Sequence record: PP400786
Length of the DNA: 64,000 nt
Source: Escherichia phage FL12
Reading direction: 5' to 3' (one strand)
Shown here: positions 37,793-57,059 of the stretch, piece after piece
How positions within the stretch are numbered: the stretch's first letter is position 1
Layout: the number at the start of each line of letters is the position of its first letter
Program-made: the position numbers and the translations under genes
Notes under the pieces: model-generated
What the model was told of the DNA's origin: nothing
The model's database searches: none
Seen by the model: only the letters and a program-made list of their open reading frames with translations

Positions 37793-38605
37793 TTAGGACA
37801 TCCAACACATTTTATAACCTTTGCAGGTTCTGTTAGGATTATTTAATGCTTTCAATATATTAGAAGACCCTATATCTAAATACTCCCTTAATTCATAAAG
37901 ATAGTTAAAATCAACAGTTTCACCTGTTTTTACACTTGTGATTCTTATAGGCCTTCTTTCATATTTAGATTTATACAACTCTCTAGTCTTAGCTTTAGTT
38001 TCTTCTGACCTAGGAGTGTATGGTTTAAATCCTTTTGTTTTAAATGTTTCCATTCTTGATTTAGTTATTTTATCCTGGTGTTCTTTTGTTTTTACAGGTG
38101 CTTTTCGCCCATTCTCCCAAGATAACTTGTTGGCCTGTATTATTTTATCTATTGCTTCTTGCGTATGAGTTTTACCATAAAATGGATTTAATTCGCCTAT
38201 ACGTTGTGAAGCAATATGTGACATTAATTCTCTTGTTGCTTTAGTATGTTTTTTACCTTTAAATGGGTTGCCATTTTTAGCAATCCATTCTTTCATAAAT
38301 CTAGAGTGCTCTTTAGAGAATTCTTGTTTAAGCCAATCATAATCTCTAGAATTTCTAGCTCCCATGTAAAAAGCTCTAATAGCCATAAGCATAGAACGGT
38401 TCTTATGAATTTTATAAAGCAATAAATGGGCGATAAAATGCTCTCTAGGGGTCATTTTAACTAGATTTGATTTAGCATTACTCCCGCCCATAGATTTAGG
38501 CAAAATATGGTGAGTTTCAGTATAATTAGGAATAGTGCTGCGGTTTTTAGCCGCAGCGATAAGTTTATCATAAATTTTACGATAATTCATTATCGTAGCA
38601 TCCAA
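37793..38605 (-). CDS. free-standing HNH homing endonuclease with NUMOD-like repeats
   Basis: 270-aa ORF; ETHHILPKSMGGSNAKSNLVKMTPREHFIAH; repeats NPFKGKKHT and NPFYGKTHT; 5' end overlaps gene 39 3' end by 16 nt. Confidence 0.8.
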   Translation of the reverse strand: MDATIMNYRKIYDKLIAAAKNRSTIPNYTETHHILPKSMGGSNAKSNLVKMTPREHFIAHLLLYKIHKNRSMLMAIRAFYMGARNSRDYDWLKQEFSKEHSRFMKEWIAKNGNPFKGKKHTKATRELMSHIASQRIGELNPFYGKTHTQEAIDKIIQANKLSWENGRKAPVKTKEHQDKITKSRMETFKTKGFKPYTPRSEETKAKTRELYKSKYERRPIRITSVKTGETVDFNYLYELREYLDIGSSNILKALNNPNRTCKGYKMCWMS

Positions 38606-40410
38606 TCTTTACGGAGTTCAGGGTCGTTACCCATGAGCATTTCAAATAGTTCTTTCCAATTTTCAGGAAGTTTAACTACGTCGTACACAGGGTTTTGAAT
38701 CATTTCTTTATATTCATCCCGCTGAAGTGAGCCCAATCCCTTGATGTATCGAATACTATGCTTAGGCAGTGTATCTTTAGCTTCTTCATACTCAGCTACA
38801 GTATAAAACCATTTTTGAGTTTTGCCAATTTGTGCAATAATTACAGGCGTTTTAACAAAGCGAATACGTCCTTGTTCAAACAATTCAGGCCAATTACTAA
38901 AGAAAGCAAGCAAAGCCGGATAAATACTTCCAAGTCCGTCATGATCGGCATCGGTCATAATAGCAATATTATGATAATTCAAGTTTTCAGCTTTTTCACC
39001 GAGAACTAATCCAGTGATTGCGCAAATATCAAATAGTTCTTTGTTTTTAAGCATATCTGCATAAGACATACCCCAACTGTTGAGAACTTTACCACGCAAT
39101 GGATAACCACCGTGAAGTTCTTTATCACGAACATCAATAAGATATCCGATAGCAGAATCACCCTCAGTCAAGAAAAGAGTAGTGTCAGCATCTTTACCAC
39201 AAAGATTCGCTTTGATATGTTTATGAACCTTAGCTTTAGAAGCCTTTTTAGCTGCCTTTGTTTCTGCTGCTTTTTCTGCCGCCAATTTACGAGCTAGTGC
39301 AGCTTCAATAATCGGCATTAAAATTGCTTCATTATTCAAAATAGCACGTGAAATCTTTTTAGCATCAAGTTGAATATGACTACGGATTTCACCAAATGGA
39401 GAAGTCAAACGCTCTTTAGTTTGAGAATCAAATCGCATGTTTTTCATATCACGAACAAACATAACGATAGTCAAACATTCTTTGACACGCGCTTTAGTTA
39501 CATCAATTTTGAACTTGCGTTTGATTTGTGGAATAAGGTCTTCACAAATATCATCCATAACACAGTCAATGTGATGGCCACCATTCTTAGTATGAATGTT
39601 ATTCACATAAGTTAATTGACGAAAACCATCCGGTGAACGACCAACCGCAATAGAACAGTTTTCTTGTTCTTGAACGATAGCATGCTCATCATACTGCCGT
39701 GCATATTTCTTAAAATTGCCCTGAACCTTTTTACCATTAAAGGTAAATTGAATATCAGGATAAACAACAGCAAGTGTCTGGAGACGATCCAGTGTAATGT
39801 CAAGATAAACCTGAGACAGCTCATTAGTTTCAAATGACATAAAATCAGGAATGAAAGTAACGCGAGTTCCTTTCCATTTTCCAGGAATATCTTCCCATGA
39901 TTTATTTTCCATGCCGTTTGAACAACGAACTACAATATTATTTTGACCATCGCCAGTTTCACCAACAAACATCACAGAAAAAATGTTTGTCAAACTAGAA
40001 CCAACACCATTCATACCACCGGTGACACGTTCTTTATCATCACCAAAGTTACCACCTGCTTTTGGAATAGTCCATGCAGCAACAGGACCAGGAATTTCTT
40101 CACCGGTAGGTGTTTTAACCATCGCTTGTGGAATACCACGACCGTTATCTTCAACTGTTACTTGATTGTTTTTAATAGTAACATTAATTTTATTTGCGAA
40201 TTTAAACTTAGTACGAATACCTTCATCTACTGAGTTATCGATAATTTCATCAATAAGCTTAACAAGACCAGGTACATACTGAACACTTTCCCATTTACCA
40301 AACAGAAAGCGCTCATGCATTTCATTAGCTGAAGAGCCAATGTACATGCCGCTACGCTTTTTGATATGTTCAATATCGCTCAGAATTTTAATTTCATTCT
40401 TAATCATCAC
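38590..40410 (-). CDS. 39: DNA topoisomerase II large subunit, uninterrupted (T4 39 plus 60 equivalent)
   Basis: 606-aa ORF with GHKL ATPase N-terminus and Toprim C-terminus (...IAIMTDADHDGLGSIYP...) in one frame. Confidence 0.9.
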   Translation of the reverse strand: MMIKNEIKILSDIEHIKKRSGMYIGSSANEMHERFLFGKWESVQYVPGLVKLIDEIIDNSVDEGIRTKFKFANKINVTIKNNQVTVEDNGRGIPQAMVKTPTGEEIPGPVAAWTIPKAGGNFGDDKERVTGGMNGVGSSLTNIFSVMFVGETGDGQNNIVVRCSNGMENKSWEDIPGKWKGTRVTFIPDFMSFETNELSQVYLDITLDRLQTLAVVYPDIQFTFNGKKVQGNFKKYARQYDEHAIVQEQENCSIAVGRSPDGFRQLTYVNNIHTKNGGHHIDCVMDDICEDLIPQIKRKFKIDVTKARVKECLTIVMFVRDMKNMRFDSQTKERLTSPFGEIRSHIQLDAKKISRAILNNEAILMPIIEAALARKLAAEKAAETKAAKKASKAKVHKHIKANLCGKDADTTLFLTEGDSAIGYLIDVRDKELHGGYPLRGKVLNSWGMSYADMLKNKELFDICAITGLVLGEKAENLNYHNIAIMTDADHDGLGSIYPALLAFFSNWPELFEQGRIRFVKTPVIIAQIGKTQKWFYTVAEYEEAKDTLPKHSIRYIKGLGSLQRDEYKEMIQNPVYDVVKLPENWKELFEMLMGNDPELRKDWMLR

Positions 40411-41295: not shown

Positions 41296-41709
41296 TTATT
41301 CCTTAAAGTGAGCTTTCAACATCTGATACAAGGACCATGCCTGTTCATCATTTTCAATAGTAACTTTCATTACAGGGAATTTAGATTGATCAGTTATCGG
41401 TGCAGATTCTTCCTGCTCTTCAGCTGCCTGGTATGGATTTTCAACTTCATTAAAGAATTCAGCTTCATTCGATGAAAGCCAAATAAAATCTTCATCCAAA
41501 ATATCTTTACCAGAAGATAGTACTAAATTTCCAGCAAATGACATAATTTTAATAGGACGCCCAAGAGCATCCACATCTAAAATTTTAAAAGGATGCATAC
41601 CTAAACGGCGTGCATAGATTCCGTTATCAGTATGGTCTTTAATAAAATTTTCTTGAGCTTGTTTATTTTTAAATTGATACCATTTATTAACTTCAAATTT
41701 AATAGCCAT
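41296..41709 (-). CDS. hypothetical protein
   Basis: 137-aa acidic ORF. Confidence 0.5.
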
Positions 41710-41927
41710 TAATAAATTTCCTTCCAGTAAGTTGTACCATCTTCAGTGATTTCACGAAATACACCGTAAATTGGTTGTTTATCCCCAACCTTTTCATACA
41801 CATAAACCGAAGTCAAGTGAGTAAACTTAGCAGTGTGTTCCTTTTGAACTACTACCAAATCTGGATCGAATAACACATCTTCAAATTCGTCATTAGTGCA
41901 ATTCTGAACAATTTTACGTTTCATCAT
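41709..41927 (-). CDS. hypothetical protein
   Basis: 72-aa ORF. Confidence 0.5.
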
Positions 41928-42097
41928 AATTTCCTCATTAATTGAACATTGGAGCGATGCGTTTCAGAAGAGTATCAGCGCACCTTTAACGAATTATTCA
42001 TTTTATTCTCCAAGTTGTTTTCTGTATCAGTAGTTGATATTGATATAGTACCATAATCAACTACTGATGTATATAGTTTTATGAAAAAATTTAAACT

Positions 42098-42589
42098 TTA
42101 TGCATAGCGAGCTTTGCTGTAGTGTTTAATCCAACTTTCAGGAATGACTTTGTATGTTCCTAAAAATACCGCGTTGTATAACTTAACGCCATCTTCTACC
42201 CATTGATCAGTAATGTATGCACACATAGCGCGAGTACGGTTAACAACACCTTCCTCACCTTCAGTAAATTCAAACTCATAAGGAGCAACGAACTTGATAG
42301 CTTGACCGAGTTTCCACTTAAAGTCTACACCTACATGCGAAGTATCAATCGTTTCAATTCCTTTAGCAGGAACAGCTTTCAAAAACGCAGATTCAAGAAA
42401 TTTCGCGCGAACATAACCAAACTGAGGTTTAGACTTTCCATCTTTAGGAATGATACGAACTTTTACTTCAGAATCTTCATCTTTAACGCCGTGTTTAAGC
42501 TGAATGCTTACAATTTCGACCAATTTTCCTGCTGCTTTAGAACGGGATTTATCAGATACACGAGCAATTTCACCAATATTAATAATCAT
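42098..42589 (-). CDS. hypothetical protein, tandem paralog A
   Basis: 163-aa ORF; C-terminal motif ...AYITDQWVEDGVKLYNAVF shared with neighbour. Confidence 0.5.
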   Translation of the reverse strand: MIINIGEIARVSDKSRSKAAGKLVEIVSIQLKHGVKDEDSEVKVRIIPKDGKSKPQFGYVRAKFLESAFLKAVPAKGIETIDTSHVGVDFKWKLGQAIKFVAPYEFEFTEGEEGVVNRTRAMCAYITDQWVEDGVKLYNAVFLGTYKVIPESWIKHYSKARYA

Positions 42590-42705: not shown

Positions 42706-43209
42706 CTAAAATCTCCTTGCATGGACAACGTTCAGAAGCTCAACACCATCTTCAATCCACTGGTCTGTTACCCAACCACAGACCGAAATAAATGGGGTCT
42801 TGATAGCTACTGCACGAGTTAGAAGGTCAGTAGGATCAACTTCTTTGAAGAGGATAAGCTCTGCTTCAAAGACTATAGTTTTAATTACTTCATCATTATC
42901 TAAGCGATGTGCTCGAATCACGTAAGCTTTATTCTTATCATACCAATTACTTTTTGAAAAACTTTTAACCACAAACTCACCTTCACCAAAAACACTGGTC
43001 AATGCTTTATAACCCAAATTTAATTCAGTAGTTTTAATTTCAGTTTCAACCAGTTTGTAGGTTTTGCCAGTTTCGATGGTCCGAGCAGTCATAAATGTTT
43101 CCTTAATTTCCAGTGGTTTAACAGGGCATACATAAGTGCTTACAACATCAAAATCAATCAGTTTAGCTACCGGATTTGGTATGTATTCAAGATTATAATT
43201 AAATTTCAT
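42706..43209 (-). CDS. hypothetical protein, tandem paralog B
   Basis: 167-aa ORF; C-terminal motif ...GWVTDQWIEDGVELLNVVH. Confidence 0.5.
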   Translation of the reverse strand: MKFNYNLEYIPNPVAKLIDFDVVSTYVCPVKPLEIKETFMTARTIETGKTYKLVETEIKTTELNLGYKALTSVFGEGEFVVKSFSKSNWYDKNKAYVIRAHRLDNDEVIKTIVFEAELILFKEVDPTDLLTRAVAIKTPFISVCGWVTDQWIEDGVELLNVVHARRF

Positions 43210-50021: not shown

Positions 50022-50489
50022 CTAAAACAATAGTAGGAGCATCGTCAAATTCATGAATTTTAGCAATTTTGGATTTAAATTATTCCATACATAATAAATA
50101 AAGTATGATAAAGCATCTTCACTCGCAATTATAAATTTATTTCCTTTATCTATTTTCCAACTATATAATGAATCGTACGAATAGAAAGATAAAGGTTTAT
50201 CATTATATTGTTCTGCGCTAACATTAATGTATTCGGATTTAGTAAATGCTTCAATTGCTCTAAACGGAATATTTGGTACAGTTTCAATAATACCAATCTT
50301 TTTAAGTTTTATTTCAGCATCTTCTGGAACTGGCATTGAAACGAAATTTTCTACGAGATACATAGGGTTACAATAACCCTTATCAATCACTACGGCTACA
50401 GTAATTGGAACATCTTTAGCAAACGACATGCTATTACTGCTAATATACATTTCAAACAAAATCGCTTCCATAATTTTCCTCAATCGCAA
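50022..50489 (-). CDS. hypothetical protein
   Basis: 155-aa ORF. Confidence 0.5.
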
Positions 50490-53622: not shown

Positions 53623-53787
53623 TTACTCTTCTTTTTCTTTAGATTCCTCTTTTTTCTTTTTAGGAATCTGCTCAGGACCTTTATTTACTACAGCGCCTGA
53701 CGTTGTTCCAGTAGAGATATTTTCAGGATTACCACCTGAATCTCCAGCGACCATATCTTCTTTGATAAATTCTTTATATGTTTTCAT
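53623..53787 (-). CDS. small hypothetical protein (61.1 position)
   Basis: About 54-aa ORF MKTYKEFIKEDMVAGDSGGNPENI...; below track cutoff. Confidence 0.4.
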   Translation of the reverse strand: MKTYKEFIKEDMVAGDSGGNPENISTGTTSGAVVNKGPEQIPKKKKEESKEKEE

Positions 53788-53788
53788 A

Positions 53789-54138
53789 TTAACCTCTATT
53801 CATAAAAGCATTAAAAATTTGGTCATCAATAGATGGCGCAGTAATATTTTCTGCATCATTTAGCAAATCATTAATTTCATCAGATAGCATAACACATGTA
53901 CCTTTATTTCCTGTAATTGTTACTGCACAATTACGAACGTTTTCTTTATCAAATTTTAGGTTAATATTTTCGTAGTGAAAATCCTTTAATGCCGAATATA
54001 TCTTTAAAATGAAATTGTCTTTTACTACAATAAACCCAACCTCACTATTAAAACGTGGTTCATGGAAACTGTAATAAACCTTTTCATCTATAAAATCGTA
54101 TGAAATTTTTCCATTTTTAAATATGAAAATTCAGAACT
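53789..54138 (-). pseudogene. frameshifted, truncated paralog of the upstream 210-aa gene
   Basis: Frame encoding ...FIVVKDNFILK...SIDDQIFNAFMNRG has no usable start; an ATG in another frame stops after 18 codons; last about 40 nt nearly identical to 54141-54190. Confidence 0.5.
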
Positions 54139-54145
54139 ATACATA

Positions 54146-54778
54146 TTAATCTCTATTCATAAAAGCATTAAAAATTTGATCGTCAATAGAAACTTTTACT
54201 TTAGGCTGTTCTTCAAACGGTAATTCATATCCACATATTACAATTTTGTGATCGATACCAAAATACACAGAAGCAATATTATTAATATTATTTTCAGTGA
54301 AATCTAAATCAACATCAATATCTTTTTGACTAACGCTCAAAGGATAATTAATACGAATAATTCGATTATCTTTAACAAAGATTCCACCGACATACTCTGT
54401 GCTGCGTTTAAAGTTTACACGTTTCCTAAATGAAAAATATTCAGGTTCTTTATGGGCTCGACTCATAGGGCTTAAAGTGTATTCCGAATATGAAATATCA
54501 AATCCTACACCTTCAATATGAGCCAAAGTGTCATGATTAAACCAATTATAATCGTATGCCAAATCCATTAAATTGTAATATGTGAAAGGCACCGGATTAA
54601 CATCATATGTTGTACCTTTAAAATCTGCCCAGGCAACGATTTCGTTATCTTTAACAATTACAAAAATTGTGCCAATAAGATATCCACGGTTATTTTCATC
54701 AGGCGTTATATTATAACATTGTGCATCAGGAAATTTACCGTATTTAAACGGTGGATTTTTGTGCATATAATAAATCAT
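54146..54778 (-). CDS. hypothetical protein (61.2 position)
   Basis: 210-aa ORF ending ...SIDDQIFNAFMNRD. Confidence 0.55.
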   Translation of the reverse strand: MIYYMHKNPPFKYGKFPDAQCYNITPDENNRGYLIGTIFVIVKDNEIVAWADFKGTTYDVNPVPFTYYNLMDLAYDYNWFNHDTLAHIEGVGFDISYSEYTLSPMSRAHKEPEYFSFRKRVNFKRSTEYVGGIFVKDNRIIRINYPLSVSQKDIDVDLDFTENNINNIASVYFGIDHKIVICGYELPFEEQPKVKVSIDDQIFNAFMNRD

Positions 54779-54779
54779 A

Positions 54780-55073
54780 TTATTCGCCTGTGATTTCGGT
54801 TACGATATTTTTATTATTGAAGTTTTTATCACAATACAGAACGTAATTATACTGCATTACCCCACCAGACTTAAGCTGTTTTTGTACTTCAGCTTTCATT
54901 TCAGGACGATCACGCTCAACGATATTCATAATATCTGCTTCAATTTGAGTTTCAACCTCAGTCTGATCCGCAGTCATAGACCATTCGCACAAATCTTTAT
55001 CATAGCCTGCCATAGCAGGCTGAGCAGCACAAGAAGATAAAGCAAAAATTGTAGCAAAGATAAATTTTTTCAT
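54780..55073 (-). CDS. sp: Spackle periplasmic protein (superinfection exclusion)
   Basis: 97-aa ORF MKKFIFATIFALSSCAAQPAMAGYDKDLCEW... with signal peptide. Confidence 0.85.
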   Translation of the reverse strand: MKKFIFATIFALSSCAAQPAMAGYDKDLCEWSMTADQTEVETQIEADIMNIVERDRPEMKAEVQKQLKSGGVMQYNYVLYCDKNFNNKNIVTEITGE

Positions 55074-55390: not shown

Positions 55391-55573
55391 TTATCCTCGG
55401 CAATCCACTTCACATACTTTCTTGTCATCAATAAAAGCTTCAACTAATGCTTTATTAACTTCAGCATACTGAGTAGTAGCCCATTGAACGTCATCTTTCA
55501 TCATTGTGGTTTCTTTAGTAAACATGCTTTCATTCTTAAACCACCCCATAAAAACTACCTTTACCAATTCCAT
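55391..55573 (-). CDS. dmd: Dmd antitoxin
   Basis: 60-aa ORF MELVKVVFMGWFKNESMFTKETTMMKDDVQWATTQYAEVNKALVEAFIDDKKVCEVDCRG. Confidence 0.85.
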   Translation of the reverse strand: MELVKVVFMGWFKNESMFTKETTMMKDDVQWATTQYAEVNKALVEAFIDDKKVCEVDCRG

Positions 55574-55601: not shown

Positions 55602-55632
55602 TACTATACCATAGTCTCGTCAGCTTGTAAAC
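55602..55632 (-). promoter_or_regulatory. early promoter upstream of dmd
   Basis: Minus strand GTTTACA, 17 nt, TATAGTA. Confidence 0.45.
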
Positions 55633-57059
55633 TAAAATTTTAATTCATTCGCCAAAGCATCTAACTGAGCTCGAGCTGATTCGTTTCTTTGATAGCGATT
55701 CTGTTCAGCCTGAATCTGTTGTGAACCTGCTACTTCGTTCACTTCAGTTGGAGTAGAATCTTGTTCAATTTCTACCCATTTCTGATTTCCCTTTTGAACA
55801 CCCATCAAAAACTTATTCCATTTGTTCTTATCGCCATATCGTGATTTGATTTGCTTAATGAGTTGTTGTTCAGCAGCTGCTAGCTCCTCGGTTTCAATGA
55901 CTGCAAGCATAAAATCAGCTGTTGCTGGAAGACCGGCAGATTCTGCAATATCGCTCATGTTAACATCGGAAGAGTCCCAAGCTTGTTTACCAACCTGTGC
56001 TGCAGTCCAAAGAACAGTTTCGGTTTCAACAGCCAGAGCACGCAATTCCTCGGCAATAGCTTTAACAGTTGTGTAACTATTTTCTGAATAAACTCTAATG
56101 CGGCAAGATTTACAAATACCTAGATAGTCGACAATAATGATTGTTGGAACAAAATTCTTCTTGAGCTTCAATTCGTTTAAAAGTGATCGAAATGTATTAG
56201 CATCTGCTCCACCAGTAGGATATTGTTTAACGATTAAACGACCGAGAGTAGATTTCTCACGCCATTTTTCCATTTTTCCTTTATACTCAGCGTAAGAAAT
56301 ATGCCCATCATCAATGTCATCAAGAGAAACATCAAGCATATTAGCGTCAATACGTTTAGCACAGACTTCTTCTGCCATTTCCATGGAGATATAAAGAACG
56401 TTATGACCAAGCTGTAAATAATCTGCTGCCAATGAACACAATCCTAATGATTTACCAACGTTAACGCCAGCCATTAAAACGTTCAGTGTTCCAGTCTCAG
56501 CTCCGCCTTTAGTAATTTTGTTTAGAATTCTGAGTTTAAATGGAACCTTACGAGCTTTATTCATATAAGATAGCCAGCGTGCTTCGTAGTCATCCATCCA
56601 ATCATGACCAACGTAGCTATCAAATGAAATTGATAATGCTTGACGCATGATGTCAGGAATAGCACCAACATCCGGCATTTTCTTATTTCGTTTTTCCGGA
56701 GGAAGCTCAGCATTAGTTTGAATTTCGATTATTTTAGACGTAGCATTAAACATCGCCCTTTGCTGAACATATTTTTCTGTTTCTTTTACTAACCAGCTGT
56801 GGTCTTCTGGAGAATCGGCTAGTTTTGAAATAAGTGTTTTTACACCAGAATATTCCGTTTCAGTAAATGAACTATTTTCTAATGCAACATTTAACGCATT
56901 AATAGATGGAACGCTATGATACTCATTGACATGAGATTTAATTAATTTGAATGTATTTTTAGCTGGACCACTTTCAAAATATTCTGAATCCATATATGGC
57001 CAAACTTTTGAAAAATAAGCTTGATCAAATATGAGATGAGAAAGAATAATTTCTACCAC
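55632..57059 (-). CDS. 41: replicative DNA helicase (DnaB-like)
   Basis: 475-aa ORF with Walker A ...LMAGVNVGKSLGL... Confidence 0.9.
   Translation of the reverse strand: MVEIILSHLIFDQAYFSKVWPYMDSEYFESGPAKNTFKLIKSHVNEYHSVPSINALNVALENSSFTETEYSGVKTLISKLADSPEDHSWLVKETEKYVQQRAMFNATSKIIEIQTNAELPPEKRNKKMPDVGAIPDIMRQALSISFDSYVGHDWMDDYEARWLSYMNKARKVPFKLRILNKITKGGAETGTLNVLMAGVNVGKSLGLCSLAADYLQLGHNVLYISMEMAEEVCAKRIDANMLDVSLDDIDDGHISYAEYKGKMEKWREKSTLGRLIVKQYPTGGADANTFRSLLNELKLKKNFVPTIIIVDYLGICKSCRIRVYSENSYTTVKAIAEELRALAVETETVLWTAAQVGKQAWDSSDVNMSDIAESAGLPATADFMLAVIETEELAAAEQQLIKQIKSRYGDKNKWNKFLMGVQKGNQKWVEIEQDSTPTEVNEVAGSQQIQAEQNRYQRNESARAQLDALANELKF

Follow-up and report, generated by a model that had tools for sequence, protein, structure and literature searches.

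A half-length paralog of the anti-DarT factor gene adfA, out of frame in the sequence of Escherichia phage FL12 and continuous in related phages

Introduction

AdfA, or anti-DarT factor A, is one of the few known phage inhibitors of DarTG. It is the product of T4 gene 61.2 (LeRoux et al. 2022, as cited in PMC11825919). The protein is small and associates with DarT1, an ADP-ribosyltransferase toxin (PMC11257639/PMC11825919). Residue 164 decides whether the toxin is neutralised: RB69 AdfA carrying the R164H change binds DarT1, and the form with R164 does not (PMC11825919). Removal of adfA from T4 caused no phenotype on DarTG1 (PMC11257639/PMC11825919), and T4 without both adfA and adfN remains resistant to DarTG (PMC11257639). 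Phage T2 has been described as naturally lacking an adfA homolog (PMC11825919).

We analysed a 64,000-nt stretch of Escherichia phage FL12 (PP400786), referred to below as the window, in which adfA is followed directly by a second coding sequence that lies out of frame and is here called gene X. The described counterpart of X is RB32ORF033c / HY01_0032 / phrog_4122. X resembles AdfA in its C-terminal domain (37% identity), in an invariant C-terminal tail and in its genomic slot, and the AdfA region homologous to X holds the DarT1-binding switch residue (RB69 R164H). X differs from AdfA in having one domain rather than two (118 versus 210 aa), in forming its own PHROG family and in being frameshifted in the window. 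Programmed -1 frameshift sites, such as A_AAA_AAG of E. coli dnaX and that of the phage tail chaperones G/GT, offer a second comparison, since they too combine a slippery heptamer with a two-frame ORF; in contrast to these, the split in X comes from a private indel, is unconserved in relatives and is accompanied by no stimulatory structure. A third is provided by the PeSL elements of T4-type phages, which work by Arbiol and colleagues in 2010 is said to have described as driving modular cassette shuffling in hyperplastic regions via repeated regulatory motifs.

The explanation that we prefer, with a probability of roughly 85%, is that the window holds two tandem genes of the AdfA family, that X is a conserved half-length paralog broken here by the private loss of a single A, and that the matching tails of the two genes act as a cassette joint.

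Results

Organization of the adfA locus

The window comes from a T4-like (Tequatrovirus) genome, and the region of interest, on the - strand, is colinear with T4 from gene 41 to gene 61. The closest phage record matches it at 98.8% over the adfA/X locus and at about 95% over 24 kb. The features of the locus, in gene order, are as follows.

55632-57059, - strand: gene 41 helicase, first in the gene order listed here
55391-55573, - strand: dmd, after gene 41
between dmd and sp, - strand: 61.4, placed by gene order
54780-55073, - strand: sp (spackle), Pfam T4_Spackle E=1.8e-45, upstream neighbour of adfA
54146-54778, - strand: adfA (T4 gene 61.2), 210 aa, intact; Pfam PF23813, phrog_3781
53789-54144, - strand: gene X (RB32ORF033c / HY01_0032 / phrog_4122), frameshifted, 356 nt versus 357 nt in relatives
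54088-54144, - strand: residual ORF MYSSEFSYLKMEKFHTIL*, 18 codons, the sole translation from the X start codon
54106-54110, - strand: A5 run in codons 13-14 of X, the site of the one-base deletion
53623-53787, - strand: gene 61.1, 54 aa, phrog_1823, its start overlapping the X stop codon
52592-53620, - strand: gene 61 primase, after 61.1

The stop codon of sp overlaps the start region of adfA, which sits between sp and 61.1 just as it does in T4. The 210-aa ORF ends ...SIDDQIFNAFMNRD, as the initial annotation of the window had recorded, and is AdfA: Pfam PF23813 matched residues 1-209 on profile positions 1-210 (E=1.7e-138), and the score of 459.3 bits against a cut-off of 27 marks a full-length family match. 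At the site aligned with RB69 position 164, where most close relatives have His and the RB69-like phage P0018 has Arg, the AdfA of the window carries Asn167 (54278-54280), and the His variant was not found there. It is possible, judging from this residue, that the adfA allele of the window has a different specificity, or none.

Among phage records, the adfA-specific N-terminal half (54485-54778 in the window) is present in 486 and falls into two sharply separate allele groups, a window-type group with at least 90% identity (~253 records) and a T4-type group at ~60-63% (~222 records); the C-terminal half is far more conserved than the N-terminal half. In phage Elenatom (PP925844; L013 868-1490), a small frameshifting deletion where the two halves of adfA meet (GVGF|DISYSEY) has left the gene annotated as two ORFs, and the X downstream of it is intact, at 119 aa. 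Thus, lesions at the adfA/X locus are not unique to the window. Elsewhere in the window, the topoisomerase large subunit is a single 606-aa ORF (38590-40410), as in phage Lutter, and the T4 split into gene 39, mobA and gene 60 with its 50-nt translational bypass is absent from that interval.

Sequence comparison identifies gene X as an ancient paralog of the AdfA C-terminal half

In every relative whose annotation was read, X is an uninterrupted 357-nt ORF of 118 codons, so that a version of this region with one continuous frame does exist. Its ATG overlaps the adfA stop codon as TAATATG, its stop codon overlaps the 61.1 start likewise as TAATATG, and translation of X in these phages would begin at its ATG. 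In the window, a two-domain gene, adfA/61.2, and after it the single-domain X occupy the slot between sp and 61.1. The position of X between 61.2 and 61.1 is that of RB32ORF033c in relatives, and phrog_4122 matched X over 118/118 residues (E=2.1e-72).

BLASTP aligned X residues 21-117 with AdfA residues 111-209 (37% identity over 105 aa, E=2e-10), and the conserved motifs YxSF and VG.I.VKDN.I lie well upstream of the tail in this alignment. Intact X, that is the Lutter sequence or the window sequence with one A restored, scored 31.9 bits against the Pfam AdfA profile (cut-off 27), and its match covers profile positions 113-211 only, the C-terminal half. Similarly, phrog_3781 and phrog_4122 are reciprocal matches over about 96 residues. 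The two-domain architecture of ~210 aa typical of AdfA was not found in X, which is 118 aa long, has a single domain and has no counterpart of the N-terminal half. Between the AdfA C-terminal half and X, outside the tail, pS was 0.87 and pN 0.50; synonymous sites in the body are saturated, and the duplication is ancient. By these comparisons, X is a true, ancient paralog of the C-terminal half of AdfA.

A narrower reading is that there is no true paralogy and that the two ORFs share just a mobile 3' cassette made up of tail peptide, promoter and RBS. High DNA identity between adfA and X is indeed confined to the last 49 nt, remoter members of the family match Pfam AdfA mainly or only through their last 14-17 residues, and a 145-aa protein of Gaprivervirus has little in common with the others beyond the tail. 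For that 145-aa family, the sequence matches suggest that sharing of the tail alone may well be the right account. For X it is very improbable, given that the BLASTP, Pfam and reciprocal PHROG matches described above extend through the whole C-terminal half and that the order of secondary-structure elements is equal in the AlphaFold2 (AF2) models of X and AdfA. A similarity limited to the 3' 40 nt, the outcome that the initial annotation had named as fatal to a duplication, is therefore not what the alignments gave.

It could also be argued that adfA was once duplicated in tandem and that X is what remains of the second copy, an old, decaying pseudogene that is 5'-truncated and unselected. In favour of this, the match of X to AdfA is limited to the C-terminal half, the frame of X is broken in the window, and the frameshift-split adfA in the deposited Elenatom sequence shows that lesions arise at this locus elsewhere. 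Against this, X has its own start codon and its own PHROG family, and it holds a steady 117-125 aa in Tequatrovirus and Gaprivervirus, with metagenomic clusters in the same range; this is the native size of the family, and X is not truncated. X-like sequence was found by tblastn in 337 phage records, in 336 of which a single place accounts for 80% or more of the query. The 60 rows sampled from these records are all single-piece, single-frame matches. Values of dN/dS were 0.11 for Lutter-T2, 0.35 for Lutter-Elenatom, 0.24 for Lutter-EAWsc9 and 0.21 for EAWsc9-DK13, which indicates that X is under purifying selection. X is also retained in T2, which has no adfA, and, compared to its relatives, the copy in the window shows nothing more than one deletion and a single synonymous substitution. 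Taken with these observations, the decaying-pseudogene reading is largely refuted and we give it very little weight: X is a functional gene in relatives, neither decaying nor truncated. Of the tandem duplication with a truncated, frameshifted downstream copy that was initially annotated, the duplication itself stands, since the two genes are paralogs and X is out of frame in the window; the truncation does not, and neither does the description of X as a decaying duplicate.

The frame break in X is private to the window

The frame that stops with the TAA at 53789-53791 encodes ...GFIVVKDNFILK...SIDDQIFNAFMNRG and, followed upstream, stays open to about 54130. No ATG, GTG or TTG start occurs in this body frame before Met86, which begins a 33-aa ORF (53789-53890). 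The ATG at 54142-54144 lies in another frame and yields MYSSEFSYLKMEKFHTIL*, so that the earlier description of a downstream body in one frame and a single nearby ATG in another, stopping after 18 codons, was accurate.

Alignment to Lutter, teqdroes and NR1 placed exactly one gap in X, with about 99% identity otherwise. Where relatives read GGAAAAAATTT, with a run of six A, the window reads GGAAAAATTT, with a run of five; compared to Lutter, this one-A gap is the sole indel over 6.2 kb around the locus. Re-adding the A to the X of the window gives a protein 100% identical to that of Lutter, which the window copy, lacking that base, cannot encode; apart from the deletion, it differs from the consensus by a single synonymous change. 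Among 294 phage records that contain the segment, the 73-mer with A5 has an exact match in none and the 74-mer with A6 in 205, and every one of the others that was sampled spans 74 nt. A single exact match was found in IMG/VR for the A6 version, and none for the A5 version. The one-A lesion is private to the window sequence. We propose that one A was lost from the A6 run at codons 13-14 of X, which would leave only an 18-residue peptide to be made from the X start.

Could X nevertheless be expressed by programmed recoding, either through a -1 ribosomal frameshift or through transcriptional slippage that adds an A? A canonical X_XXY_YYZ heptamer, T_TTA_AAA, lies in the zero frame at codons 8-10 of the 18-codon ORF; slipping by -1 at this heptamer would produce MYSSEFSYLK-NGK-ISYDF..., which differs from wild type in two residues, and at G_GAA_AAA it would recover the wild-type X sequence exactly. 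Both T_TTA_AAA and G_GAA_AAA, however, also occur in relatives with an unbroken frame, and the heptamer was therefore not selected for recoding. A run of five A is too short for efficient transcriptional slippage, which counts against recoding as well. With, in addition, no stimulatory RNA structure (MFE -15.9 kcal/mol versus a shuffle mean of -16.7, z = +0.26), no Shine-Dalgarno-like element seen upstream, no sampled relative that would need recoding, and no relative in which the two-frame arrangement is conserved, recoding has next to no chance of being the explanation, and the earlier suggestion of a gene that needs a frameshift can be set aside. A leaky X product is possible, expected in trace amounts at most. 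In an annotation, 53789-54144 is best entered as a conserved gene with a frameshift, or corrected should the missing A prove a sequencing error, rather than as a recoding site or an intergenic gap.

Returning to the private loss of one A, the absence of any other decay in X together with the private nature of the lesion implies that the base was either lost very recently, as a null mutation, or missed in sequencing. The odds between a very recent loss-of-function mutation and a homopolymer sequencing or assembly error appear roughly even, judging from the sequence comparisons. Over the 64-kb window, private indels relative to T4 and Lutter with a length not divisible by three comprise two homopolymer cases, at 54110 (in X) and 50058, and others at 41980 and 42717. 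The contraction at 50058, close to the 3' end of the mrh homolog (ORF 50022-50489, - strand), reduces a run of five T to four on the + strand; the fifth base is present in phage T4 and in Lutter, and the 73-mer of the window occurs in 0 of 195 phage records. The contraction changes about 12 residues at the C-terminal end of Mrh, and mrh no longer overlaps srh, whereas in T4 the two genes overlap. Because of this contraction in mrh, the sequencing-error option for X is kept open. Two private contractions in runs of 5-6 would fit low-rate homopolymer miscalling and would fit real mutations in dispensable accessory genes just as well, and two in 64 kb are too few to call the assembly error-prone. 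At 41980, two nucleotides (GC) are inserted in the gap that separates ORF 41709-41927 from ORF 42098-42589, and at 42717 a single nucleotide is inserted some three codons short of the stop codon of ORF 42706-43209. The frameshift in X is in itself ordinary and of little general interest.

The gene tails form a direct repeat with a middle-promoter-like motif

The near-identical 3' ends noticed initially, over about 40 nt, proved to be a 49-nt direct repeat, its copies 46/49 identical (94%) and 357 nt apart, each with a predicted promoter-like motif.

54142-54190, - strand: tail copy 1, the adfA 3' end encoding SIDDQIFNAFMNRD, plus the TAATATG stop/start overlap
53785-53833, - strand: tail copy 2, the X 3' end encoding SIDDQIFNAFMNRG, plus the TAATATG overlap with 61.1
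54143-54167, - strand: predicted MotA-box/-10 motif TGCTTTTATGAATAGAGATTAATAT in tail copy 1, T4 middle-promoter-like
53786-53810, - strand: predicted MotA-box/-10 motif in tail copy 2, upstream of 61.1

The tail peptide, DDQIFNAFM(N/K)R(G/D), ends all proteins of the family, even where the rest is <30% identical. Synonymous sites in the tail do vary between genera (tail pS up to 0.75), and therefore the primary constraint appears to be on the peptide. Within the window, tail pS between adfA and X was 0.29 compared to a body pS of 0.87, which points to gene conversion or recombination between the tails, or to an added constraint at the level of DNA.

Both tails contain a MotA box with a -10 element (TGCTTTT-N12-TAATAT), and both sites are annotated as 'promoter' in phage Lutter. 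The pattern TGCTTYW-N11-13-TANNNT occurred 19 times in the window, mostly on the - strand, versus 5.07 expected, and 0 of 100 shuffles reached 19; these matches fit a dense set of predicted T4-type middle promoters. The literature search returned no usable record of a middle promoter mapped upstream of 61.1, and scans for sigma-70 promoters and terminators gave nothing specific to the adfA/X locus. We suggest that the near-identity of the tails would come from the constraint on the peptide, from the embedded middle-promoter-like motif with its RBS, and from recombination or gene conversion.

Relatives differ in which genes of the slot they carry

In the T4 61.1-61.2 region, with which a comparison had been suggested, adfA is present and X is absent, and at the junction the 49-nt repeat is single-copy, the two flanking BLAST HSPs overlapping by exactly 49 nt. 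In its tail, T4 has the three bases that are diagnostic of the X tail of the window. This fits, but does not prove, loss of X from T4 by a recombination-mediated deletion within the 49-nt repeat. In T2 (MH751506; L008 1501-1857), X follows sp directly, with no full-length adfA; it is annotated there as 'gp61.2' and its Pfam AdfA score of 32.5 bits is above the cut-off of 27. The Gaprivervirus phages EAWsc9 (L009 1062-1869) and DK-13 (L010 1017-1809) have in the same slot the 145-aa protein and then an X homolog of 117-122 aa, and both of these proteins end DDQIFNAFMKR(D/G). The 145-aa protein is phrog_8539-like; in one record it is named 'serine/threonine protein kinase', a label for which Pfam gave no support.

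From these junctions, the 49-nt tails look like a recombination joint at which cassettes are added or removed. Such a joint would account for the cassette states seen: adfA only in T4, X only in T2 and both in the window. The arrangement is similar to PeSL elements in that short promoter-bearing repeats flank optional small genes that vary among T4, T2, the window and Gaprivervirus. It differs in that the repeat is part of the coding sequence itself, taking in the final 14 codons and the stop/start overlap, in that the motif is of the middle (MotA) type and not an early promoter with a stem-loop, and in that the role in recombination is here inferred from the junctions alone.

Predicted structure and possible function of X

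In the AF2 model of X (pLDDT 82.9, pTM 0.72), five strands come first, then a helix, one more strand and a second helix, and last a C-terminal helix of lower confidence. The X product is thus predicted to form a five-stranded sheet with helices, and then a flexible C-terminal helix, DDQIFNAFMNRG. This invariant, flexible tail helix may be an anchor that the family shares.

In a BFVD fold search, only family members were found at E<=0.001, so that structure gave no functional lead. Among PDB sequences, a profile search found no match with E below 0.3, and PADLOC and NCBIfam gave no matches. Only 6 clusters were retrieved by a profile search of 1.84 billion representative proteins, and there are therefore no distant relatives to inform function. 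X Asn72 aligns with Asn167 of the window AdfA, equivalent to RB69 position 164, and by this alignment X would contain a homolog of the helix that bears AdfA residue 164. By analogy with AdfA, X is probably a stand-alone binding module of different specificity. Its homology with the DarT1-binding AdfA makes it most likely, in our model, that X would by itself bind and inhibit a toxin or another defence protein, with its own specificity. The proposed function draws solely on the 37% identity to half of AdfA, and the DarTG resistance of T4 lacking adfA and adfN (PMC11257639) counts against it.

A broader proposal, which we offer tentatively and consider rather doubtful as a whole, is that X is an independent single-domain inhibitor of a DarT variant or another toxin, that the 12-residue tail is an anchor helix common to at least three families (118, 145 and 210 aa) that otherwise diverge, and that the tail DNA, with its middle promoter and TAATATG, is a site of cassette swapping. 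If this were true, T2, reported to be without an adfA homolog, would carry a functional half-AdfA. A half-length paralog in 337 records, T2 included, together with the invariant tail could offer an inroad to target recognition and to the exchange of anti-defence cassettes. The locus is of modest interest for DarTG counter-defence, as it presents a single-domain member of the AdfA family that is also in T2, a shared tail and a cassette polymorphism that the tail may mediate.

In the AF2 model of AdfA (pLDDT 70.8), the strand and helix order of X occurs twice, which suggests that AdfA may itself be an internal duplication of an X-type domain. The profile of the AdfA N-terminal half aligned with the X family in register but weakly (hhalign E=0.0039, probability 8.6%).
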